Of a stretch of 64,000 nucleotides of DNA, positions 6,786 to 43,414 are shown piece after piece; the first letter of the stretch is position 1, and each line of letters opens with the position of its first letter. The stretch covers positions 20,483-84,482 of the forward strand of contig DULU01000052.1 in the NCBI GenBank assembly GCA_012840225.1, written 5' to 3'. A model generated the notes under the pieces. The model was not told the origin of the DNA. It ran no database searches and saw only the letters and a list, made by a program, of their open reading frames with translations. A program made the translations under genes and the position numbers. Source of the stretch: Bacillota bacterium. Its GTDB lineage: Bacteria; Bacillota; Limnochordia; DTU080.

Positions 6786-7154
6786 AGGGTAGCCGTATTG
6801 CTCAGGTCTGTGGTTGAAAGTCGAAGCCAGCCGCAGGCAAAGCGACCCACGTAAGGCGACGGATAATCAGTCGCCGAGCATGGTGCGGCTTAGTGTAAGT
6901 CCTGCCCACCACTTCCCTTAGGCCTTTCTCCGATCCCCTCAGATTATTGGGTGGTATTGGGTGCCTTGGAAACCGGCAGCGCAGTAGATCTATCTATGTC
7001 ACAACAACATGAAGATCAAGGAAGTGGTGGAGAGAAGCCCGCCGATTGGCGAGGATTCCCGCAGGTGAGTGTGGGGGCAAAGACCAGGTCAGCTGGGCAA
7101 TAACGGTTATTCTTTTGCCGGTCGTCCATGCCGGGGAAGTGGGGGATTGGAGAA

Positions 7155-30856: not shown

Positions 30857-30886
30857 AACTTGGTTTTTGGCATGGAGGTGCGAGGG

Positions 30887-32269
30887 ATGAAAGAAGAGCA
30901 GCTGATGATCTTACGGATGGTGGAGGAGGGCAAGATATCGGCTGAGGAGGCGGCCGCACTTCTTGATGCTCTGTTTCGGGAAGAAGACCAGCCGGGGGCG
31001 AAAGCGGTAGAGGCCACTGAAGCGGTGAAAGCGGCAGGAGCGACGAAGGTGGCGGAGCCCAAGGAAACCGTGGAGCCGGAGGAGCCCGGGGAACCCGGGG
31101 AGCCTGGAGAACCGGAGGAGCCTGTGGAGCCCGGGGAAGACGAAGCTGGCCGCATGTATGAAGAGATAGGCGAGCGGGCCGCTCAAATCGGCGTCACCTT
31201 CGGCGAACAGTTGGGGGCGCATATGGGCCGCCTGGGAGAACGCCTGAGCCGGGAGCTTTCCGCCCAGTTGGCTCACCTGGATAAGGCTTTGCGTCCTCTG
31301 GAAAAGTGGAAAGATATAACCTTCAGAATAGAAAAAATCAAAGATGTCGATCTGGGGAGCGGCGGGCTGCTGCGGCAGGAAGTGGTGGATGAATACACCG
31401 GCGAGTTTGCTCCCGGCGCGGAGTTGGTGAGAATCAACCTGCGCACCCGCAATGGACAATTGACGGCCAGATCGTGGGAGGAGCGCGGTTATAAAGTAAT
31501 CATCCGCAAAAAAGTGGTGGTGGAATCGGCGGGCGAGACGCCGGAGGAGTTGGCGGAGAAGGCCAAAAAGGCCGTCACTTATAGTTTCGGCGACAACTAC
31601 CTGGAGGTGCGGGCCAACGAAAGCAGAGTGGTGCCGATGGTGGCCGTTGAGGTCCTGGTGCCGGATAAACATAAATACCTCCTGGAGATGCACACCATCA
31701 ATGGAGGAATCATCTGCCGGGGATTGCGGCTCAGTCAGGCTTATATCAGCACCACCAACGGCGGCGTCAATACCGAGGAGCTGTCCGGTGCCGAGATGAG
31801 GGCGGAGTCCGTCAACGGCAGCGTCCAACTGGTCGATGCCGCTTTCAACACGGTGCGCATCACCACCACCAACGGTTCCATCCGCTGGAGCGGCAGCACC
31901 GGAAAGGCGACCTTGGCGACGACGAACGGCTCCATAACTGTGAATCTGACATCTCCACCTGTGAGCGGCGTCGGCAGTCGGCCCGGCGACGACCTGGATG
32001 CCGAAGCCAAGTATAACCTCACCACCACCAACGGCAGCATCAAAGTGGAAATCGATGCAGGTATGGAAAGCCTGCCGGTGCAGTTCGATGCCGCCACTTC
32101 CCATGGCAGCATTCGCCCCATCGGCGCCTGGCAGATCACCCATGAACATAAATCCATTGGTTCCAGAACGATGAGCGGTAGAGCCGGCACCGGTAAAGGT
32201 AATGGAGAAAAACCTTTGCTGTTGACGGCCCGGACCACCAACGGCTCAATCAAATTGATACGCCCCTGA
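30887..32269 (+). CDS. DUF4097/YvlB-like beta-helical 'putative adhesin' protein
   Basis: N-terminal EQLMILRMVEEGKISAEEAAALLDAL motif, acidic PEEPGEPGEPGEPEEPVEP linker, then repeated TTNGSI(R/T/K) beta-strand units characteristic of DUF4097. Confidence 0.6.
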   Translation: MKEEQLMILRMVEEGKISAEEAAALLDALFREEDQPGAKAVEATEAVKAAGATKVAEPKETVEPEEPGEPGEPGEPEEPVEPGEDEAGRMYEEIGERAAQIGVTFGEQLGAHMGRLGERLSRELSAQLAHLDKALRPLEKWKDITFRIEKIKDVDLGSGGLLRQEVVDEYTGEFAPGAELVRINLRTRNGQLTARSWEERGYKVIIRKKVVVESAGETPEELAEKAKKAVTYSFGDNYLEVRANESRVVPMVAVEVLVPDKHKYLLEMHTINGGIICRGLRLSQAYISTTNGGVNTEELSGAEMRAESVNGSVQLVDAAFNTVRITTTNGSIRWSGSTGKATLATTNGSITVNLTSPPVSGVGSRPGDDLDAEAKYNLTTTNGSIKVEIDAGMESLPVQFDAATSHGSIRPIGAWQITHEHKSIGSRTMSGRAGTGKGNGEKPLLLTARTTNGSIKLIRP

Positions 32270-33662: not shown

Positions 33663-34463
33663 ATGATGCCTATACGACTGATAGCTATAGATATGGACGG
33701 TACCCTGCTCACCGATGACCTGCAGATTCCTTCTTCGGCCAAGGCGGCCATCGCCGCCGCCCGGGCCAGAGGGGTGCGGGTGGTGCCGGCGACGGGGCGC
33801 ATGTTCGTCTCCGCCTTGCCATATGCCAGGCAGATAGGGGCCGAAGGCCCGATCATCGCCTATAACGGCGCCAAGGTAGTCGATCTGGACGGTAGGGTGC
33901 GCAAACACCACCCGGTACCTCCGGAGGAAGCTTTGGCTTTGGTGGATCTGGCCGAGAAACATGATTTGTGCCTGCATCTTTATTTCGAGGACCAGACATA
34001 TGTACGCCGCTTCGATGAGGGAGCGCAGTATTATGCGTCCTTGGCCGGGGTGGAGCCGGTGGTCATGCCCGACCTGCGCCCGGTAGCCCGCCGGGGCACC
34101 ACGAAAGCCCTCATCGTGGACGATCCGGCGGCGGTGGAGCGGTGGTGCGGCGAATTATCCCGCCGGTTCGCCGGGCGGCTTTTGGTGACGCGCTCCCTTC
34201 CCCGCTTTGTGGAGTTCATGGCCGCAGGAGTCTGTAAAGGCGTCGCTTTGGCCGAACTGGCGGCCGAACTCGGCCTGGCTCCGGAAGAAGTGATGGCCAT
34301 CGGCGACAGTTATAACGATATAGACATGCTCACCTATGCCGGTGTCGGGGTAGCCCTCGGCAACGCCCAGCCGGCGGTGAAAGAGATGGCCGACTGGGTG
34401 AGCAGTGCCAATACCGATCACGGGGTAGCCAGAGCCATAGAAAAGTTTGTGTTGGCTTCATAG
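33663..34463 (+). CDS. Cof-type HAD-IIB family hydrolase
   Basis: IAIDMDGTLL (HAD motif I), ...ATGR..., ...GDSYNDIDML (motif IV). Confidence 0.75.
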   Translation: MMPIRLIAIDMDGTLLTDDLQIPSSAKAAIAAARARGVRVVPATGRMFVSALPYARQIGAEGPIIAYNGAKVVDLDGRVRKHHPVPPEEALALVDLAEKHDLCLHLYFEDQTYVRRFDEGAQYYASLAGVEPVVMPDLRPVARRGTTKALIVDDPAAVERWCGELSRRFAGRLLVTRSLPRFVEFMAAGVCKGVALAELAAELGLAPEEVMAIGDSYNDIDMLTYAGVGVALGNAQPAVKEMADWVSSANTDHGVARAIEKFVLAS

Positions 34464-34982
34464 ATGTGTTTAGGGCGCGGGAGTTTTATTATTTTGTTAC
34501 CGGATACCGTATACGGTATGCGCATATGGAACCATAAAAACTGGAGAAAAAGAGAGATAATGGAAGATATACAGTGTTTGGTAGAACTGGAATATAATAA
34601 ACCGCTTGATATAGCAGGACAGAGCCAAATATGCAAAGAAATAGGCAACCGGGACGACAGCAATGTCACATCCCTGTGGCATATGGCCTTGCTCTTCAGC
34701 AGTCGGGCCCGCGGCCGGGAAAGGAGGTGTTATCCCCCATCTGCCGGACGGAGGCCCTGAAGAGAAGAAGGTCGCCGGACGGAGCAAGCGACTAAGCCGG
34801 GGCGCATCAGGAAAAGGAATGAAAGGCGAGGAAACATGGACACTCCCTTTTATCGGCTGGTGCACCCCCACCTGGCAACAGATGCAGATGAAGCAAAAAA
34901 TGCCGCAGCCCCAAGGCGCAGCTGCGCCTGACGGGGCAAAGACACAGGAAAATGAACACCATCAAGGGGGATAACAAGCCAC

Positions 34983-36254
34983 ATGAAAAAATTGGTATCG
35001 CTTTTGACCGCAGTTTTGGCTCTGGCTCTGATCGGCACCATGCCTGCCGTCGCCGCCGGAGTCCTGAAGACGGACGGCAAACTTGCCGGGGAATACAAAA
35101 TACAGAACGGTAACCTGCCGGCTGCAGCCAACTTGACCACCGAGGTCAATCTGGCGGTGGAGGCTGAGGAGGAAGGCTGGCGGGCCGAGGCGGAGTTGGG
35201 TAACCTCATCGGCGGCGCGACCGCTTTGGGTGAGTATCAGATCGAGTTCCGCGATCCCAGGCTCAACCTCAGCTTCTGGGGTCTGGGCCGGGAATACCAG
35301 GAAGAGGATCTCACCGATCCATTTGAGTTCATAACCTCCGCACACAAATATATGGGCAATTTGAAGGCCCGGGCTATTGCCGGTCCGCTCACGGTGGATT
35401 TTGAGGACGACGGCGAGTTCTTCGTGTTCGGCGAGAAAGAGATCGCCGGGCAGACCCTCGGTATCGCCGCCCACCACAAATTGCCCTTGAGCAACGGCTT
35501 CACCGCTTTAGGCTACGACCGCATCAACCTGGCCGGTGTAGAGCTGACTGCCGGTGTGGGTGTCAACACCAAAGCCACCGCTCCCTCAGATCTGGCCTAT
35601 GCGGTGAAAGCCGAGGTGCCGGTACCTGTGGTGCCGGAACTGAAAGCTATCGCCCAGTTTAAGATCCAGCCGGCCGGCTTCAACGGCGCCGATGAAAAGG
35701 AAATCAAGCTGGAAGGCGTGCATGAGACGGACTTGCTGAAAGTGAACGGTTCATTCGCCAACGCCATGTCCAATACCACCGGAGCATTCAAACAGAATGT
35801 AGTGGAAGCCACAGCAGAGTGGCGTGGGGCCAAAGGCGAGCTGGACTGGGACGAGCAGTTTGAGAGCGATGAATACTTCAAGAACACGGCTCCTGCCGTC
35901 CGGGCGCAGCTCAACCGCACCACCACTCCGGGCGACGTGGTCGCTACCAAAATAGCCGTGACCGGCACCTCGCCCATCATTCCCGGACAGGTCTGGGTGC
36001 TCGGCAGCCTGGTTAATGAACCGGAAGCCAAGCGCACGGAGATCAAGGGCGACGGTTATATCAAGATGAGTGAAAAGATCATCCTGGAACCGGGTGTACG
36101 CTATGAGAAGGCTCCGGTCGAAACCATGGAGCTGATCGGCAAGGCCACCTATCAGATGAATGAAAACGGTAAAGTATGGGCCAAATATGCCCAGAAAAAC
36201 ACCGGAGGCACGAGGAACGACGAGATCAGCGCCGGATACGAAGTGCTGTTTTAA
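34983..36254 (+). CDS. Predicted outer-membrane beta-barrel protein (paralog A; signal peptide, C-terminal Y-x-V-L-F)
   Basis: Sec signal peptide MKKLVSLLTAVLALALIGTMPAVAAG. Beta-rich alternating composition. C-terminus ISAGYEVLF with terminal Phe and hydrophobics at -3/-5/-7. RBS AAGGGGGATAA is shared with the paralogs. Confidence 0.6.
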   Translation: MKKLVSLLTAVLALALIGTMPAVAAGVLKTDGKLAGEYKIQNGNLPAAANLTTEVNLAVEAEEEGWRAEAELGNLIGGATALGEYQIEFRDPRLNLSFWGLGREYQEEDLTDPFEFITSAHKYMGNLKARAIAGPLTVDFEDDGEFFVFGEKEIAGQTLGIAAHHKLPLSNGFTALGYDRINLAGVELTAGVGVNTKATAPSDLAYAVKAEVPVPVVPELKAIAQFKIQPAGFNGADEKEIKLEGVHETDLLKVNGSFANAMSNTTGAFKQNVVEATAEWRGAKGELDWDEQFESDEYFKNTAPAVRAQLNRTTTPGDVVATKIAVTGTSPIIPGQVWVLGSLVNEPEAKRTEIKGDGYIKMSEKIILEPGVRYEKAPVETMELIGKATYQMNENGKVWAKYAQKNTGGTRNDEISAGYEVLF

Positions 36255-36332
36255 TCGGACAGCGGTTTTCAGCCGGCGTTTGCTCCGGACCCAATAATAA
36301 AATAAATATAGAAAATAACAGAAATAGTGGTG

Positions 36333-36374
36333 AGAGCACCTGCACCGGTCGGCGCAGGTGCTCTTTCTTCTTTT
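36333..36374 (+). terminator. Rho-independent terminator
   Basis: AGAGCACCTGC-accggtcggc-GCAGGTGCTCT followed by TTCTTCTTTT. Confidence 0.65.
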
Positions 36375-36893
36375 CAGCTTTCAGCTTCCCTCAGCCGTCA
36401 GTTTCCCTCCGCTTATCTTTAATCTATGTTTTTATTGGTTTTATAGTTAAAAATTGCAATTGGCCGGAAGGAATTGGCGTTATCATGATGAAATATCGTA
36501 TAACTTCTGCAGCCGGATATGGGTACGAGGGGAATAAAAATAAAGTATGTAAGGTAATCCTTACATCCCTTGACGGGAAGCGATAAATTTACCAAAAAAG
36601 GCAGCGAACCAGCAGGAAAACGAGGATATTAGTAAAAACATACAAGGTGCATAGAGGGCGAAGGCTATAAGTCCGGATTAACTGGCGGTAGGGAAAGGAG
36701 GTGCACCCCGAGGTTTACCGCGAGTGCAGTGAATCACCGGACATAGCGGGGGGCTGGATGCCGGTAACGAAAGCGTCTGCTGTTCACTAATGGTAACAAG
36801 GTCACTTTAGTGAAGATATGGCGCTGTGTCCGGCCGGCAGTAAACATACGCATGCTCCTCTTAATAAATGAAAAAACTAAGGGGGTTCTATAA

Positions 36894-38240
36894 ATGAAGA
36901 AGCTAGTATTAGCTCTATGTCTAGTGCTGACATTGAGTGTGGCGGCATATGCCGACACCACAGTTGAGGTGGGTATTACCGGACAGGTCAAGTGGGATGC
37001 CAACGTAGCTCAGAAAGACGATCCCGGCTATGGGAGCCAACCGGTCCTCAAGGTAACAAGCAAGGGAACCGGCTGGACGGCCTCTTTTGATACCTTCTAC
37101 AACCGCTTCAAGCTCCAGGGCAGCGAAGGCCCGTTGAGCGTAGCGGTATGGGGAGGCTTTGGTCCCAGCGGTTTGGGCGTGGCGAGCTATGAGCGTGTAT
37201 CGCCCGTAGTCCGTCCGGACAGCACGTTCAACTGGATCCAGGGCGCTCAGGATTCCAATGCGAGCAACTGGAGATTCCGCACCGTATATAACCATAGCCT
37301 GGCCAAGTTGACCCTGGACTACGATAATCAAAGCGACCAAGCCATCCTGGCGGCTGAGAAGACCATCTCCGGCTTCGCTTCCGGTATTGGTGTCCAGCGT
37401 TCTACCAACCCGACCAAGGACGAGTCCGTCTTCGCCGCTTGGACCAGCGGCAAGATCGCCGGTGCGACGGTGGTCGGCGTAGGTGCCATCCAGGCGGTCA
37501 ACGGCGACACCAAGGATCGTACCAGCGTCGGTGTCAAAGCCACCTATACCATTCAGCCGATCAACGTCACGGCCATGGGTTACTTCATGGTGCGCGGCAA
37601 GAGCTTCGGCAATGTCACCACCGGTTATATCGAAGGTTCCAAGAACATCATCAACAACCTTGGCAACCTCTATGGTTACTTCAAGTATGATAAAAATGCT
37701 ACCACTGATGTCGTCACCACCAACATCTATGGTCGTCTGCGCCTGCGCGGCGATACCGGATCCGCGTTCAACTGGAACCTGGTAGACGGTTACACCAGGG
37801 ATCGCAGCTGGCTCAAGGTGAAGACCTACTCCAGCCAGTTCTACGTCCAGAGAACCCAGGCGGGTGATAAAGTCAGCCTGTTCAGGTTCTATGGCTTAGG
37901 CGTGGTTAAGTTGGATGTGGCCAAAGGTCTGTGGGTCCGTCCCGAGATCTACATCGAGCCCATCGCCAATGCTAACAAGGACAAGAGAACACTCGTCAAT
38001 GGCAATGCTTATCTGCAGCTGACCGACCGGGTCTTTGCCGAGGCGACCGGACAGTATCAGAATAGGAGCCAGGATGACAATCCTTCCAATAACTTCAGCG
38101 TTTCCATCGGCTTCTCCGCCGATCCGGTAACCGTGCATCTGGAGCCCACCAAGCGGGTAACGTTGAAGGTCGAGTCTTCGACCAGCACCGCCAATGTGAC
38201 CACCAATTCGGCTACGCTGAACTACCTCCTGGTCTTCTAA
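36894..38240 (+). CDS. Predicted outer-membrane beta-barrel protein (paralog B)
   Basis: Signal peptide MKKLVLALCLVLTLSVAAYA. ~55% identical to paralog C over its length (shared blocks QRSTNPTKDESV..WTSGKI, GRLRLRGD.GS...W.LVD.YTR, GLWVRPE.YIEP, LVNGNAYL.LTDRV). C-terminus ATLNYLLVF. Confidence 0.65.
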   Translation: MKKLVLALCLVLTLSVAAYADTTVEVGITGQVKWDANVAQKDDPGYGSQPVLKVTSKGTGWTASFDTFYNRFKLQGSEGPLSVAVWGGFGPSGLGVASYERVSPVVRPDSTFNWIQGAQDSNASNWRFRTVYNHSLAKLTLDYDNQSDQAILAAEKTISGFASGIGVQRSTNPTKDESVFAAWTSGKIAGATVVGVGAIQAVNGDTKDRTSVGVKATYTIQPINVTAMGYFMVRGKSFGNVTTGYIEGSKNIINNLGNLYGYFKYDKNATTDVVTTNIYGRLRLRGDTGSAFNWNLVDGYTRDRSWLKVKTYSSQFYVQRTQAGDKVSLFRFYGLGVVKLDVAKGLWVRPEIYIEPIANANKDKRTLVNGNAYLQLTDRVFAEATGQYQNRSQDDNPSNNFSVSIGFSADPVTVHLEPTKRVTLKVESSTSTANVTTNSATLNYLLVF

Positions 38241-38279
38241 TCGTCAAGATTTAGAAACAGAGGATAGAAACTTCAAAAT

Positions 38280-38390
38280 AGAACCGCTGTAGCCTGTGCT
38301 GCAGCGGTTCTATTTGTTTAGCGCTCTTCGACCATAACTACTTATCCTTGTAGCAGCACCGGTGCTCATAGCCGGTGCTTTTCTTTTTTT
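38280..38390 (+). terminator. Two tandem intrinsic terminator hairpins
   Basis: GAACCGCTG...CAGCGGTTC + TATTTGTTT (38281-38320), and GCACCGG-tgctcatag-CCGGTGC + TTTTCTTTTTTT (38355-38390). Confidence 0.6.
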
Positions 38391-38748
38391 AGCCCTTGGC
38401 AGCAGTTGGGATAGTTAATAGTAATATCCAGGCACAGCATGCGCAGAAAAGAAGGAAAACAGGGAAATGCAAAGAAACAATGATATACAAGAATGCATTA
38501 CAGGCGGAAAGCTTGGCTGTACTGGCGGTGGAGAAAGGAGGTGTTCCCCACAAGTTGGCCGCAAGGGCAGTGATCGCCAAGCTGAAGCGGGGAGCACGGT
38601 ATTAAGGAAAATGAAGGTTGGGGCAGCAGTCGGTGTGGTCTGGAAGGAAACTTGGACACTTTCAGCGGCAGCCGGTGCCGCCACAGCCGACCATAAGACA
38701 TTTACCTGCTCCTCCTATAGATGAAGCAACAACTTAGGGGGTTTATTG

Positions 38749-40086
38749 ATGAAGAAGTTAGCATTAGCATTATGCTTGGTGTTGACCTGCAGTTTCCTGG
38801 CGTATGCCGAGACTGAGGTGAAAGTCGGGGTAGCCGGCGAGACCACCTGGACACCGGGCGCCATCGTGAAGACCGACGGACAAGGTTTAGTGCTGAAAGT
38901 GAACAGCAAGGGAGAAGGATGGACGGCAACGTATGACTCCATGACCCAGCGCTATAAGATCCGGGCCGGTGAAGGTCCCTTGCGCGTTGATCTCTGGGGT
39001 GCGGACAATGGGAATAAAATCCCGGAGCGTTTGTCCTATTTGCGGTCGGATTCCAACCTGAACTATATTCAGGGTAGTCAGGATTCCGCCGACAACAACT
39101 GGAAGATGCGCGTGAGCTACGACCATGACCTGGCCGACCTGGTCCTGGATTACGACAATGCCACCAACCAGGCTATCTTGGCGGCGCAGAAGAAAATCGC
39201 CGGCTTTGATTCCGCAGTGGCTATCCAGCGTTCCACCGATCCGACCAAAGATGAATCCATCATCGGCGGTTGGACAAGCGGTAAAATCGGTCCGGTGGGC
39301 GTAGTCGGCGTGGCCGCCGTGAAAGCCAACAACGGCGATACCACCGACGCCATGAGCATCGGTGCCAAAGCGACGTACACCATCAAGCCGCTAGATATCA
39401 ACACCATGGCTTATGTCTCCAAGCGCGGCAAGAATTTCGGCGATGTCACCACCCTTTACGCCGAAGCTTCGAAGAACATCATCAACGGTCTGGGTAATCT
39501 CTATGCTAAGGTGCAAAACGACACCAAAGCTTCCGACGGTACCGTCACCAACACCGTATATGGACGCGTCCGCCTGCGTGGCGACAGCGGCAGCAGCTAT
39601 GACTGGGATCTGGTCGACACCTACACCAGGCAGCTCGACTGGTTGAAGACCAAGACTTATGCCGGTCAGGTTTATGCCCAGAACACCACGACCAACGGGC
39701 AGACCACTCTGCAGCGGCTGTATGGTATTGCCACCGTCAAGATGGATGTCGGCAACGGCCTGTGGGTCAGACCCGAAGTCTATATTGAGCCGGTAAACTC
39801 CATCGACAAGAATACCGGTAAAGCGGTGACCAGAACGCTCGTCAACGGCAATGCTTACCTGAAGCTCACCGACCGGGTCTCCTTGGAGTCCAATGTCTCC
39901 TTTGAAAACAGGAACACCTTCACCAAGGGTCCGAGGACTGCGTATGGCGCCGCCGTCGGTTTCCAGATGGATCCCACGGATGCCCACATCCAGTCCGACA
40001 AGCAGGTTAAGCTGGCCTATAACTCCAGCACCGTGGACGAAGTGACCAACAACACCGCCACTTTGAGCTATATGCTGGTCTTCTGA
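38749..40086 (+). CDS. Predicted outer-membrane beta-barrel protein (paralog C)
   Basis: Signal peptide MKKLALALCLVLTCSFLAYA. C-terminus ATLSYMLVF. RBS TAGGGGGT 6 nt upstream of the ATG. Confidence 0.65.
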   Translation: MKKLALALCLVLTCSFLAYAETEVKVGVAGETTWTPGAIVKTDGQGLVLKVNSKGEGWTATYDSMTQRYKIRAGEGPLRVDLWGADNGNKIPERLSYLRSDSNLNYIQGSQDSADNNWKMRVSYDHDLADLVLDYDNATNQAILAAQKKIAGFDSAVAIQRSTDPTKDESIIGGWTSGKIGPVGVVGVAAVKANNGDTTDAMSIGAKATYTIKPLDINTMAYVSKRGKNFGDVTTLYAEASKNIINGLGNLYAKVQNDTKASDGTVTNTVYGRVRLRGDSGSSYDWDLVDTYTRQLDWLKTKTYAGQVYAQNTTTNGQTTLQRLYGIATVKMDVGNGLWVRPEVYIEPVNSIDKNTGKAVTRTLVNGNAYLKLTDRVSLESNVSFENRNTFTKGPRTAYGAAVGFQMDPTDAHIQSDKQVKLAYNSSTVDEVTNNTATLSYMLVF

Positions 40087-40167: not shown

Positions 40168-40212
40168 AAACCGCCGCCGCCGCAGCTGCTGCTGCGGCGG
40201 TTGGCGTTTGGG
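40168..40212 (+). terminator. Intrinsic terminator-like GC hairpin
   Basis: AACCGCCGCCGCCGCAGC-TGCT-GCTGCGGCGGTT followed by GGCGTTTGGG. Confidence 0.5.
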
Positions 40213-40289: not shown

Positions 40290-40319
40290 TTGACGGGGGA
40301 ATAGGAGTAGTGGTATAGT
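40290..40319 (+). promoter_or_regulatory. Sigma-A-like promoter (TTGACG-N18-TATAGT) upstream of the 40453 gene
   Basis: -35 TTGACG (40290-40295), 18-nt spacer, -10 TATAGT (40314-40319), followed by an AT-rich ~130-nt leader. Confidence 0.45.
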
Positions 40320-40452
40320 AAAACTAACGTACTGATTGTCTTTGGGGAACAGATACAAAGATATTAAAAATAAATATAACCAAATAACTAACCTACATAA
40401 GCGGGGCGAAAGAGTGAGCGGAGCAAACCGGTCAGGCTGTCGGCAGCTTCTC

Positions 40453-42039
40453 ATGCTCATAAAGATCTTTTGGGTAGTGCTTGTTATGTCCGCTGTCGTG
40501 GTGTGGCGGGCGAAAGCGGCAGAGGTGCATGGCACGCTGGCACTGGAGGGCAGCTACAATCGCTTTACCGGGTGGCGATTTGCGGAAAGCGAAGCGAAGG
40601 TGACTTATAAGCCGGCTTGGTGGCGGAATGCCGAGTTGGCCATAACCTTCAAAGACAGCCGGGCAGCTCTGGGCTATAAGTGGCTCCTGGAAGATAAGGT
40701 TTGGCGCATCGCCACCTGGCAGGGGGTCTGTCGGGAGAGCGGTTGGCGGGATCCTTTTTCTTTGGTGTCGCTCAGCGGCGTTCCGGTGGCCCCTTGGCGC
40801 CTGCGCCTGGAGCACAAAACTTGGGGTCTTGGGAGCGATCTGGCCCCCTCGCATCATGCTCTGCACTGGCGGAAGAGTATGGGAAAAATGCGTATCGGCC
40901 TGCTTTTTACAGGTAGCGGTGCTGCGGCGGCGTCCTTACCTGACGACGATGAAGATGATGATGGGGAAAGTGATGAGCAAATCGGCGGCGATGGCGATGA
41001 TGAAGATGCCGATGATAACGGCAGTGTTGCCGCCGGAAGCTTATTCGGCGTAATATATGCCCGCTATGATAACGGCGGTTGGTATGGTGCTTTTTCGCTC
41101 GCCGGGAGCCGGGCGGGCGGGAGAGAAGCCGGGAGCGACGGCCAAACGCGGGGCGCTTATGCTTTTGAGCTCAGGCATAGAAGTGATCGCTTCTATATTT
41201 CCCTGGCGGATAAATATAAAGAAGCCGGCTTCAAAAATCCTGATAAACCCCTCAGCCGGGTAAGCAAATTCCGGGTAGGCTGGAGGATTGGAAATTTCAC
41301 CCTCTTCCTGGAGGAGAGGATAGAGGAGGAAGGTAAGCGGAAAAGATGGCAGGAACTGGCTTTGGGTGTGCGTCCCAAGGCCAGGGCCGGCCCCCTGTCT
41401 ACCTTGATCACGGAGCGCCTGGTGGCCGCCGGGGGACCACTCTCCTGGTTGGTGCGCTGGGAAAGGTTGGTAGCGCCATCTTCCCGGTGGACCATGCAGG
41501 TGGAAGTGCGCGGCCCCTGGCGATCCGGCAGCCAGGGTGATAGCCAAGGCGGCAGCCAGGGTGGCAGCCAAGGTGGTAGCCAAGGTGGTAGCCAAGGCGG
41601 CAGCCAAGGTGGTAGTCAGGGTGGCAGTCTGGGCGGCAGTCTGGGCGGCGGCTGGGGCTGGCGGCTGGTTTTGGCCGAAAACAGGGATACCTGGCTCAAC
41701 TGGTATGTCACCTTGCCGGGCGGGAAGAGGGTGCTCACCAAATATTCGGTAATGGCCTGGAAGACGGCCATTCTCTACCAGTTGGTGCTCCCCGGAGGCC
41801 GGCAAGTGGGAGGTGAGTTGGCCGGCGGCGCCGAATACCGGGACCGTGACCCACCGGCAGTCCCACCTGCTCTTATGATCAGCGGTACCTGGTGGTCATG
41901 GAAGGTGAAGGCCGCCAAAAAACTGAATGACCGGATAACGCTCGCTTGGGAATATGAGCACCTATATGCCGATGATCTGCCGGCCGGGGCGGTCTGGCGC
42001 GAAAGTGGGCAAAAATGGCATTTGCTGTGGCAGTTTTAA
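40453..42039 (+). CDS. Secreted beta-rich protein with (GGSQG)n and acidic tracts, C-terminal beta-signal-like ...LLWQF (putative OM protein)
   Basis: Signal-like MLIKIFWVVLVMSAVVVWRAKAAEV. Poly-acidic DDDEDDDGESDEQIGGDGDDEDADDNG. Ten-plus GGSQG repeats. Terminal Phe with W at -3 and L at -5. The start is uncertain (ORF opens at 40336). Confidence 0.5.
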   Translation: MLIKIFWVVLVMSAVVVWRAKAAEVHGTLALEGSYNRFTGWRFAESEAKVTYKPAWWRNAELAITFKDSRAALGYKWLLEDKVWRIATWQGVCRESGWRDPFSLVSLSGVPVAPWRLRLEHKTWGLGSDLAPSHHALHWRKSMGKMRIGLLFTGSGAAAASLPDDDEDDDGESDEQIGGDGDDEDADDNGSVAAGSLFGVIYARYDNGGWYGAFSLAGSRAGGREAGSDGQTRGAYAFELRHRSDRFYISLADKYKEAGFKNPDKPLSRVSKFRVGWRIGNFTLFLEERIEEEGKRKRWQELALGVRPKARAGPLSTLITERLVAAGGPLSWLVRWERLVAPSSRWTMQVEVRGPWRSGSQGDSQGGSQGGSQGGSQGGSQGGSQGGSQGGSLGGSLGGGWGWRLVLAENRDTWLNWYVTLPGGKRVLTKYSVMAWKTAILYQLVLPGGRQVGGELAGGAEYRDRDPPAVPPALMISGTWWSWKVKAAKKLNDRITLAWEYEHLYADDLPAGAVWRESGQKWHLLWQF

Positions 42040-42304
42040 TCTCCGGACAGCGAATGGATTTTTTCGTCAGAAGCAGGGATTAAACCGATTTTCACCAAAT
42101 CATCCATTAAAGCAGGAAGGCGGCGGGTGATGGCGAAATATCGGTATGTGCCCCGGTGTGTGCGTTGCACCGAGCACCGGGCGGATTGCCGGCCTGCCGT
42201 TTTAGAGACGGAGATCAAGGCAGTAGAGCCCTGAACAGGACTCAGGTTCAGGGGTGCCAAGAATGAGTCTCGGCTGTAAGGCCGAAAGGAGGAGGAGCCA
42301 CGCT

Positions 42305-43414
42305 GTGGCACAAGTAATTCTTCAACATGTTACCAAGAGATTTGGTAACGTCATCGCTGTCAACGACGCTACTCTTGAAGTCAGGGACCGGGAATTTATG
42401 GTTTTGGTAGGTCCGTCAGGTTGCGGTAAGTCTACCACCTTGCGCATGGTAGCCGGGTTGGAGGATGTCACCGAAGGGAATATTTATATCGGTGAGACTC
42501 TGGTAAACAACATCCCGCCCAAAGACCGGGACATTGCCATGGTGTTCCAGAACTATGCTCTATACCCGCATATGGACGTATACAACAACATGGCTTTCGG
42601 TCTGAAGCTGCGCAAGTTCCCCAGAGCGGAAATCGATCGCCGGGTGCGTGAGCATGCCCGCCTGTTGGGCATCGAAAACTTGCTCGACCGCAAGCCGACC
42701 CAGCTCTCCGGCGGCCAGAAGCAGCGCGTGGCCGTAGGTCGGGCTATTGTGCGTGAGCCCAAGGTGTTCTTGATGGACGAGCCTCTGTCCAACCTGGACG
42801 CTTTGCTCCGGGTGCAGATGCGCGCCGAGCTTTCCAAGATTCATGCCCGCTTGCAGACCACTGCTATTTACGTGACCCACGACCAGACAGAAGCCATGAC
42901 CATGGGCGACAGGATCTGCGTGCTGAAAGACGGCGTCATTCAGCAGGTGGGACCGCCGCTGGAGATCTATGATCATCCGGTTAATGTCTTCGTCGCCGGC
43001 TTCATCGGCAACCCGCCCATGAACTTCGTCAACGGCTTCCTGAAGAAGGAAGGCGACAACTACATCTTCGATGCCAACGGCGCCTTCAGGGTGACCATCC
43101 ATCCGGACCGGGCGCGGCAGATCAAGAATATCGGCGCCTATGTCGACAAGGAAGTGATCCTGGGCATCAGGCCTGAGGATATCGACGATGCCAAAATTCA
43201 TCCCGGCGACGAGAGCAATACGGTAATTGCCATGGTCGACGTGGTCGAGCCGATGGGTGCCGAAAGCCTGATCTACCTGTCGAAAGGCGAAGCCCAGCTG
43301 GTGGCCAAAGTCGACCCGCACAGTGATGCCGAGGACGGAGTGGAGCATCCGGTGCGCCTGAACATGAAGAAGGTCCATATCTTCGACAAGGATACCGAGC
43401 AAGTCGTGGTGTGA
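42305..43414 (+). CDS. msmX: Sugar ABC transporter ATP-binding protein (MsmX/UgpC/MalK type)
   Basis: Near-identical core to B. subtilis MsmX (FMVLVGPSGCGKSTTLRMVAGLE...AMVFQNYALYPHM.VY.N.AFGLKLRK...LSGGQKQRVAVGRAIVREP). Solitary ATPase, as msmX often is. GTG start with AGGAGG upstream. Confidence 0.85.
   Translation: MAQVILQHVTKRFGNVIAVNDATLEVRDREFMVLVGPSGCGKSTTLRMVAGLEDVTEGNIYIGETLVNNIPPKDRDIAMVFQNYALYPHMDVYNNMAFGLKLRKFPRAEIDRRVREHARLLGIENLLDRKPTQLSGGQKQRVAVGRAIVREPKVFLMDEPLSNLDALLRVQMRAELSKIHARLQTTAIYVTHDQTEAMTMGDRICVLKDGVIQQVGPPLEIYDHPVNVFVAGFIGNPPMNFVNGFLKKEGDNYIFDANGAFRVTIHPDRARQIKNIGAYVDKEVILGIRPEDIDDAKIHPGDESNTVIAMVDVVEPMGAESLIYLSKGEAQLVAKVDPHSDAEDGVEHPVRLNMKKVHIFDKDTEQVVV

Follow-up and report, generated by a model that had tools for sequence, protein, structure and literature searches.

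In a 64-kb window (the whole stretch of DNA analysed, 64,000 nucleotides) of contig DULU01000052.1, from the Bacillota bacterium assembly GCA_012840225.1 (Limnochordia), three genes, here called A, B and C, are each preceded by a long 5' leader, and these leaders are the subject of the present study. The exact 11-mer GAAAGGAGGTG, called motif 1 (M1), is found once in each leader, always on the + strand, and nowhere else in the window. Scanning of both strands gives these three matches, compared to 0.01 expected from shuffled sequences, and none of 100 shuffles reaches three. M1 lies 264 (A), 201 (B) and 216 (C) nucleotides (nt) upstream of the ATG codon, in agreement with the ca 200–260 nt given in a preliminary description of the locus, and a run of C follows it within 2–4 nt (TTATCCCCC in A, CACCCC in B and TTCCCC in C). 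By aligning the leaders, a second block common to all three was found, GGWAACWWGGWCACT, called motif 2, which has three matches in the window compared to 0.04 expected and is located ca 100 nt downstream of M1 in each leader. It is flanked by inverted repeats, the sequence of which differs among the three copies. The blocks that the preliminary description had pointed out as shared by B and C (GCAGTGA... and AGCGGGG[G/A]GC) are also present in the sequence.

The three downstream proteins have a signal peptide and a C-terminal Phe. B and C are 51% identical and are encoded by tandem paralogs, while A is only 21% identical to B (pairwise E-value 0.001), which means that the earlier designation of three outer-membrane protein (OMP) paralogs fits B and C, but A only loosely. 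Since A and B are only distantly related and still carry the same motifs, the leader of A shares these motifs beyond close paralogy. None of the proteins has a Pfam or NCBIfam match, and no S-layer homology (SLH) domain is found in the three window genes. The AlphaFold model of protein B is all-beta after the signal helix, at low confidence (pLDDT 36.9). The OMP label is used here on the basis of the signal peptide, the C-terminal Phe, this low-confidence model, and the presence of the same leader before OmpM-type porins elsewhere. Among 5.8 billion proteins, three close homologs were found for B and two for A. The only orthologous contig (L001) comes from the same strain and has identical leaders, and it is therefore uninformative for the comparison of leaders.

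The folds of the individual sequences and of the window leaders agree on the same order of elements in the 5'-to-3' direction (Table 1). A long hairpin, P1/P2, displays M1 in its apical region, and a pyrimidine tract, C1, is found 2–8 nt further on. Conserved short AUAG and GC(A/G)G stretches come next, together with P3, a hairpin that is variable. Downstream of P3 are the purine tract G2, the hairpin P4 with motif 2 as its 12-nt loop, and a further pyrimidine tract, C2. The real Shine–Dalgarno (SD) sequence of the gene closes the series. M1 is thus one block of a multi-helix leader of ca 170–200 nt, with a second and more widely conserved hairpin, that of motif 2.

Table 1. Features of leaders A, B and C in window coordinates. 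MFE, minimum free energy fold.
Copy	Feature	Position	Strand	Basis
A	Structured 5' leader of the 423-aa gene 34983–36254	34685–34982	+	
A	M1 GAAAGGAGGTG, tip of hairpin P1/P2	34719–34729	+	
A	P1	34692–34698 with 34758–34764	+	fold
A	P2	34705–34709 with 34753–34757, and 34715–34718 with 34744–34747	+	fold
A	C1 TTATCCCCC, anti-SD tract	34730–34738	+	full-leader MFE
A	Hairpin P4, loop is motif 2 GGAAACATGGACAC (34830–34843)	34820–34852	+	
A	P4 extension, G2 GGGG with C2 CCCC	34799–34802 with 34865–34868	+	fold
A	Real ribosome-binding site AAGGGGGAT; GGGGG 34966–34970, ATG 34983	34964–34985	+	
B	Leader of the 448-aa gene 36894–38240	36664–36893	+	
B	M1 GAAAGGAGGTG	36693–36703	+	
B	P2	36685–36692 with 36714–36721	+	fold
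B	P1	36664–36668 with 36743–36747, and 36671–36676 with 36737–36742	+	fold
B	C1 CACCCC	36704–36709	+	
B	G2 GGGGGG, inside the AGCGGGGGGC block of the preliminary description	36748–36753	+	
B	Hairpin P4, 8-bp stem TTCACTAA/TTAGTGAA	36783–36814	+	
B	Motif 2 GGTAACAAGGTCAC, in the P4 loop	36792–36805	+	
B	C2, anti-SD TGCTCCTCTTA	36853–36863	+	
B	Real SD; GGGGG 36881–36885, ATG 36894	36878–36896	+	
C	Leader of the 445-aa gene 38749–40086	38510–38748	+	
C	M1 GAAAGGAGGTG	38533–38543	+	
C	P2	38521–38529 with 38558–38571	+	fold
C	P1	38510–38517 with 38576–38583	+	fold
C	C1 TTCCCCACAAGTTGG	38544–38558	+	
C	G2 GGGGAGCA	38589–38596	+	
C	Hairpin P4 (CTGGAAG/CTTTCAG), motif 2 GGAAACTTGGACAC (38646–38659)	38640–38665	+	
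C	C2, anti-SD TGCTCCTCCTA	38707–38717	+	
C	Real SD; GGGGG 38737–38741, ATG 38749	38735–38751	+	

A genome search with the two-motif pattern AAAGGAGGTG-N80-110-GGWAACWWGGWSAC gives 48 loci, compared to ca 4 expected by chance according to a rough estimate of our own. The matched taxa are Armatimonadota, Halanaerobium/Halanaerobiales, Limnochordia, Wallbacteria, Ozemobacter and Synergistales, together with many metagenome-assembled genomes (MAGs) of Bacillota and Clostridia. At 44 of the 48 loci the element is followed, at a distance of 45–150 nt and in the same orientation, by a gene for a protein with a signal peptide and a final Phe, and many of these 44 proteins begin with the SLH signature F.DVP.DHWAY, which is the mark of OmpM-type porin/tether proteins. 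The other four matches (L009, L044, L016 and L029) look like chance. Two leader copies before neighbouring OMP genes are seen in L018 (at 5301 and 7290) and L014 (3391 and 6852, − strand), and two copies also in L023 (1486 and 3381) and L040 (1526 and 4154). Tandem OMP genes, each with its own leader, are a recurring arrangement.

We have also reached leaders by a route independent of the pattern, using OmpM protein homology and, for metagenomes, a scan based on an alignment of OmpM proteins. Each of the three cultured Synergistetes (Thermanaerovibrio, Aminomonas and Dethiosulfovibrio) has a perfect GAAAGGAGGTG ca 180–196 nt upstream of the ATG; motif 2 is diverged in these organisms, and the downstream genes carry the PF00395 SLH domain. 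Further 13 Synergistetes-type metagenome loci with the perfect 11-mer were found in this way, that is, without the use of any RNA pattern.

The proposed helices were then assessed by covariation. For P4, 77.9% of the cells are paired over 64 sequences, and the covariation score is 0.559, compared to 0.186 in shuffles (none of 500 reaches the value) and 0.14–0.22 with the partners slid. The column pair 11/28, for example, is AU in 29 sequences, GC in 29, CG in 5 and GU in 1. P4 is also recovered from the pattern-only set, which was built without a stem filter. With MAFFT and RNAalifold, applied to all 44 leaders and to 15 of them, P4 alone was recovered, since the 5' domain is too variable in length for P1/P2 to be aligned by MAFFT. 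For P1/P2 we have therefore used own-versus-cross duplex permutation tests and an alignment of Synergistetes only. The own strands have a duplex energy of −29.1 kcal/mol, compared to −21.7 kcal/mol for strands combined across clades, and none of 20000 permutations reaches the own value (379 of 20000 for a control region). When RNAalifold is applied to 16 leaders of Synergistetes, the helices P1, P2a and P2b are all obtained, and they contain compensatory changes. The MFE z-scores of the 5' domain are modest, with a mean of −1.2.

As B and C are tandem paralogs, one option considered was that the common motifs are a functionless residue of gene duplication. This option is refuted by the distribution over 48 loci and the covariation of P4, and we assign it practically no weight: in many phyla the covarying element is located before OMP families that are unrelated to one another, and A and B share the motifs in spite of an identity of only 21%. 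The preliminary description had proposed a cis-regulatory RNA structure and had named the lack of covariation in orthologs as the observation that would speak against it. Strong covariation was found instead, and the recurrence of the covarying element in many phyla upholds the proposal.

We now turn our attention to the region of the real SD. Most Bacillota-like and Synergistetes loci have AAGGGGGA at this place, while Armatimonadota have CAAGGAGGA, and the tract after P4 is CCCCC in the former and UCCUCCUG in the latter. The type of the SD thus tracks that of C2, GGGGG occurring with CCCCC and GGAGG with TCCTCCT. In ca 40 of 47 leaders, the two best partner zones of the SD region are C1 and C2. 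Own-versus-cross duplex tests on 29 clade representatives, with 20000 permutations, give −15.25 kcal/mol (own) versus −12.1 kcal/mol (cross) for C1:SD and −14.15 versus −12.05 kcal/mol for C2:SD, and in neither case does any permutation reach the own value. For the middle region, used as control, the energies are −9.62 and −8.98 kcal/mol, and 1318 permutations reach the own value. The complementarity to the SD extends into flanks outside the G and C runs, with compensatory variants such as GTTCCTC/GAGGAAC, AATCCTC/GAGGATT, CGTTCCCC/GGGGAACG, TTGGTTGA/TCAACCAA, AACACTTC/GGAGTGTT and, in window leader A, GTTATCCCCC/GGGGGATAAC. This covariation of the C1 and C2 flanks with those of the SD, beyond the G/C runs, indicates selection for pairing with the SD. 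C1 and C2 are two anti-SD strands, and G2 can hold C2.

The window leaders illustrate the different pairings. In copy A, TGTTATCCCCC (34728–34738, consisting of C1 and the UG of M1) is a perfect 11-bp complement of GGGGGATAACA (34966–34976), and the two are paired in the full-leader MFE. In the MFE of copy B, C2 (36857–36863) pairs with the SD region TAAGGGG (36878–36884). In that of copy C, G2 pairs with C2 TGCTCCTC (38707–38714), such that the P3/P4 domain is enclosed, and CCTCCTA of C2 is at the same time complementary to the SD region TAGGGGG (38735–38741). The C1 tract of copy C contains CCCC and AAGTTG, the complements of CAACTT..GGGG, which lies partly before the SD and partly inside it. 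In copies B and C, C2 (TGCTCCTC...) thus pairs either with the SD or with G2, the latter being the AGCGGGG[G/A]GC block mentioned above; for copy B, the G2:C2 pairing is proposed by analogy with copy C. Over the whole set, the SD is paired in the MFE folds of 41 of 47 leaders, and freeing it costs ca 3 kcal/mol. In the Synergistetes loci L051, L054–L057 and L063–L072, hardly any variation is seen in the context of the ribosome-binding site immediately before the ATG, AACCAAGGGGGUU. This context can fold locally into a small hairpin (AACC/GGUU) with AAGGG in the loop, which is a possible third state of the SD.

M1 itself is an 11-nt perfect complement of the 3' tail of the 16S rRNA as it generally reads (...CACCUCCUUUC / ...CACCUCCUUUCU-3'). 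The earlier statement on the core, which described an extended complementarity to the 16S 3' end at a site remote from any start codon, is supported. M1 opens with GAAAGGAGG (its first 9 nt). In more distant clades the variants GGAAGGAGGTG, GAGAGGAGGTG, GAGGGGAGGTG, GAAGGGAGGGG and GAAAGGAGGGA are found. The changes in the GAAA part are from A to G only, by which G·U pairing with the UUU of the 16S rRNA would be kept. However, in GAAGGGAGGGG and GAAAGGAGGGA, as well as in GGAAGGAGGGG and GAGAGGAGGGG of a soil clade, U10 is in addition replaced by G, and this G would be unable to pair with the A of the 16S rRNA. The calculated probability of being unpaired is 0.76 for GAAA and 0.30 for GGAGG.

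In the preliminary description, it was suggested that the C-run could pair with the motif, possibly forming an SD-sequestering hairpin. The C-run is indeed present, but the M1:C1 pairing is weak, −5.2 kcal/mol compared to −5.6 kcal/mol for shuffled sequences, and M1:C1 as a strong SD-sequestering hairpin was therefore rejected. Sequestration of an SD is still part of the design, but C1 co-varies with the region of the real SD ca 200 nt downstream. Taken as a whole, the earlier interpretation is thus partly supported. We have also considered that the C1:SD helix brings M1 beside the AUG, to act as a discontinuous SD. This scenario is weakly disfavoured, the median of the M1-to-helix plus helix-to-AUG distance being 12 nt.

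A further option is that M1 is the SD of a short leader peptide that regulates the downstream gene. M1 is a perfect SD, and in copy C a TTG located 13 nt after GGAGG opens an open reading frame (ORF) of 18 codons. However, a start codon 4–12 nt after GGAGG is found in 6 of the 29 clade representatives, compared to 30% by chance, and five of these six are TTG. The ORFs show no conservation and do not share a register, and there is none in copies A and B. A leader-peptide attenuator was thus rejected, as no conserved start codon or short ORF is present among the 29 clade representatives, and this role of M1 must be regarded as very improbable.

The leader could also be the binding platform of a regulatory protein, such as a CsrA-like, envelope-stress or autoregulatory factor. 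In this scenario, two GGA loop sites would be provided, one by motif 2 (with the loop ACAAGGA(C/G)A in many copies) and one by M1 (AAGGAGG), and a dimer bound to both would repress or stabilise the mRNA. Both motifs are presented in loops, and many motif-2 loops resemble the CsrA consensus RUACARGGAUGU and the BS1 site of B. subtilis hag. However, the GGA of motif 2 is not conserved. It is GGU in window copy B, in Halanaerobium and in some Armatimonadota, GGG in Thermanaerovibrio and GGC in some copies, and altogether GGU, GGG or GGC takes its place in a sizeable minority of the 64 hairpins, which is not the pattern of a CsrA/RsmA-bound leader, where an invariant GGA, typically within A(N)GGA, is displayed by hairpin loops at two or more sites. 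In addition, the invariance of M1 extends well past a GGA site. We consider a protein platform of this kind improbable.

Another likeness of motif 2 should be mentioned here. Its variant GGUAACAAGGU (36792–36805 in the window; also L005, L012, L030 and others) is identical, in the sense orientation, to the 16S rRNA stretch GUAACAAGGUA. This stretch is universally conserved, serves as the 1492R primer site, and lies ca 40 nt from the anti-SD tail that M1 complements. The invariant positions of motif 2, G.AAC..GG..AC, all fit it. The likeness could be a coincidence, or it could be rRNA mimicry for a 30S-binding factor.

Next, the leaders were compared to known RNA families. In Rfam 15, the region 34400–38800 gives three chance-level matches at E≤10, none of them a riboswitch, and 18 related loci give no match on the element. 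The ydaO-type resemblance tentatively suggested in the preliminary description is thereby ruled out, since ydaO-yuaA (RF00379), the c-di-AMP riboswitch, gives no match even at this threshold, and its probability is as negligible as that of the duplication residue. In the whole window, the only match at the gathering threshold is a raiA RNA (RF03072) at 6797–7101 (+; 143 bits, E=2e-35), which is away from the leaders and unrelated to them.

The literature does, on the other hand, offer a candidate. The SLH motif was reported as a cis-regulatory riboswitch candidate with unknown ligand (Stav et al. 2019, BMC Microbiol 19:66; PMC6429828). It originates from the intergenic region upstream of an S-layer-homology gene of Thermovirga lienii (NC_016148.1:613490-613841), and its 80 examples are from Synergistaceae, Clostridia, Negativicutes and metagenomes, ca 60% of them upstream of SLH-domain genes and the rest before genes of unknown function (PMC6429828). 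A search of the literature collection at hand gave no later paper on it. Judging from the gene association and the taxa, it is highly probable that the window leaders belong to this class. As in the SLH motif, the element lies directly upstream, and in the same orientation, of SLH-domain or unknown-function genes (44 of 48 loci), and the window genes, having no known domain, fit the latter group, although they differ from most SLH motif examples in that they have no SLH domain. The taxa also correspond: the element is present in the three cultured Synergistetes and in MAGs of Clostridia and Bacillota, and the motif-2 module in Negativicutes-type OmpM loci. There are, however, differences from the published description, as far as its passages on the motif go. 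The range of the element also includes Armatimonadota, Halanaerobiales, Wallbacteria and Ozemobacter, and these passages mention neither members from the first three of these taxa nor several features seen in the element, namely the block complementary to 16S rRNA, the pair of anti-SD strands, and the existence of a short and a long form.

For M1, the closest parallel is the STAB-SD of the cry3A mRNA of Bacillus thuringiensis, an SD at position −125, remote from the start codon and not followed by an ORF, which has been proposed to bind the 16S 3' end of the 30S subunit, to block ribonucleases and thereby to stabilise a very highly expressed mRNA (PMC12970973). Like the STAB-SD, M1 is complementary to the 16S rRNA, is 201–264 nt away from the ATG, and has no conserved start codon behind it. 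The cry3A sequence is said to have been given by Agaisse and Lereclus in 1996 as GAAAGGAGG, that is, the first 9 nt of M1. The processed 5' end of the mRNA is within a few nt of the STAB-SD, which is not known to require a fold around it. M1, in contrast, is placed at the tip of a 30–40-bp hairpin in a multi-domain leader, beside an anti-SD strand, and is kept across phyla. As P1/P2 enclose M1, it should lie at least 30 nt inside the transcript.

These comparisons bear on the possibility that the leader is a pure mRNA stabiliser, that is, a decay-resistant 5' structure combined with a STAB-SD, without any switching. The pairing of the C-tracts with the SD would then be incidental, both being G/C-rich. 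Consistent with this are the large distance of M1 from the start codon, the stable hairpins at the 5' end, and the nature of the gene products, which are the most abundant proteins of the envelope. The 5' untranslated region (UTR) of E. coli ompA and the leaders of S-layer genes are likewise long structured 5' UTRs that stabilise the mRNAs of very abundant envelope proteins, and a similar link to growth rate and stability is plausible here. To our knowledge, these leaders have no sequence or structural homology to the element, and neither a conserved 16S-complementary block nor a conserved 12-nt loop. However, a stabiliser does not account for the covariation of the C1 and C2 flanks with the SD flanks beyond the G/C runs, for the position of M1 inside P1/P2 instead of at the 5' end, or for the conserved motif-2 loop. 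The scenario appears rather unlikely, but it is more probable than a protein platform.

Considering all of the above, the interpretation that we favour, with a probability of roughly 45%, is that the leader is a cis-acting translational control and stability element for abundant outer-membrane proteins of diderm Terrabacteria, in which M1 would dock the 30S subunit. The leader would set how often the real ribosome-binding site is open, and thus tune its accessibility, and it would probably prolong the life of the mRNA. In the most economical reading, M1 would be a docking site for 30S subunits, similarly to the cry3A STAB-SD. A 30S subunit parked on M1 would cover the adjacent C1 and keep the real SD free, and decay in the 5'-to-3' direction would be blocked as well. 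The availability of ribosomes would then govern how strongly the major envelope protein is expressed, while motif 2 may be read by a further factor, which could be a ligand, a protein or an RNA. A more specific version, in which M1 is a phylum-spanning 30S docking site on a hairpin tip and part of a ribosome-gated switch, with the motif-2 hairpin as a second input, is doubtful. With such a switch, the translation and stability of the outer-membrane tether/porin mRNA would scale with the supply of free ribosomes.

It is important to point out that a number of observations weigh against 30S docking at M1. The docking step itself is purely conjectural, and the 16S 3' tail of these uncultured carriers is presumed to be the general one given above. 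Partial pairing is predicted for the GGAGG core of M1, and in the MFE folds the SD pairs mostly locally or with C2 and not with C1 (29 versus 3 of 47). The own-versus-cross tests carry a small composition effect, the controls being not fully null (p about 0.02–0.07). The probable identity with the SLH motif is drawn from gene association and taxa. Finally, an aptamer core or a site for protein binding would explain an invariant block of purines equally well.

The short leaders raise a further point of this kind. Negativicutes-type OmpM leaders keep the module of G2, P4/motif 2 and C2, but have no M1 domain. In these leaders a promoter is found ca 35 nt upstream of the motif-2 module, for example TTGACA-17-TATAAT in L097. 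The short form was seen in gut-metagenome Negativicutes-type OmpM loci, namely L086, L093, L097, L108, L112, L120 and others. It indicates that M1 belongs to an optional 5' module and that the motif-2 module is the ancestral or universal core. As these leaders serve the same gene family without M1, M1 is therefore an accessory and motif 2 the universal sensor.

The main rival to the docking of 30S subunits is a riboswitch that senses a metabolite or a second messenger. P1/P2/M1, P3 and P4/motif 2 would then form the aptamer, and M1 would line the binding pocket or make tertiary contacts, its SD-like appearance resulting from competition with the real SD for C1. Depending on the ligand, C1 and C2 would either be kept within the aptamer (ON) or be set free to pair with the SD (OFF). 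This is in line with the covarying multi-helix fold with invariant loop and junction nucleotides, with the two anti-SD strands, which are laid out like the expression platform of a riboswitch, and with the classification of the SLH motif as a riboswitch candidate by Stav et al. (PMC6429828). Indeed, as in the platforms of translational riboswitches and RNA thermometers, the pyrimidine tracts co-vary with the SD and can be held by purine tracts (G2:C2 and M1:C1). However, unlike in such platforms, there are two separate anti-SD strands ca 100 nt apart, and M1:C1 is weak as a holder, being no better than shuffled, which makes M1 a poor anti-anti-SD. Furthermore, the gene context suggests no ligand, as the genes encode structural OMPs and not enzymes or transporters, the M1 domain is dispensable in the Negativicutes-type leaders, and the agreement of M1 with the 16S complement covers six positions beyond GGAGG, which is not predicted by a role in an aptamer. 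We consider the riboswitch unlikely, although less so than the pure stabiliser. It should be noted that the docking and riboswitch readings are not fully exclusive.

Turning to the surroundings of the leaders, four consecutive genes (34983–36254, 36894–38240, 38749–40086 and 40336–42039) encode secreted or envelope-type proteins with no Pfam/NCBIfam family and almost no homologs. The fourth protein (567 aa, 40336–42039) has a promoter-like site of its own at 40290–40319 and no leader motif, and a scan for sigma-70 promoters revealed no convincing candidate before any of the three leaders. Each of the three genes has G+C-rich hairpins with a T-run behind them at its downstream side (36336–36372, 38284–38316, 38355–38389 and 40170–40205), of which only 38355–38379 was flagged by the scan tool. 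These hairpins suggest that each gene, with its own leader, is a separate transcription unit. Further away are the genes for a SHOCT-like plus DUF4097 ('toastrack') protein (30860–32269, +), a Cof-type HAD hydrolase (33663–34463) and a MalK-like ABC ATPase (42254–43414), and for none of these is a functional link to the leaders evident.

In diderm Firmicutes, Synergistetes and related phyla, the outer membrane is anchored to the cell wall by OmpM-type proteins, which rank among the most abundant proteins of these bacteria. The leader described here is an orphan regulatory RNA, published once and absent from Rfam, and it spans many more phyla than reported. The window leaders are probably new members of this published but uncharacterised class, present in triplicate before OMPs that have no SLH domain. 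The build is modular, with a universal motif-2 hairpin and G2/C2/SD platform and an optional module that displays M1. Two anti-SD strands co-vary with the SD, and the best-conserved block is a full complement of the 16S 3' tail. With these findings, the class is now made testable. If 30S docking is true, the STAB-SD principle would no longer be confined to one Bacillus toxin gene, but would also apply to a conserved control of envelope biogenesis across Terrabacteria.

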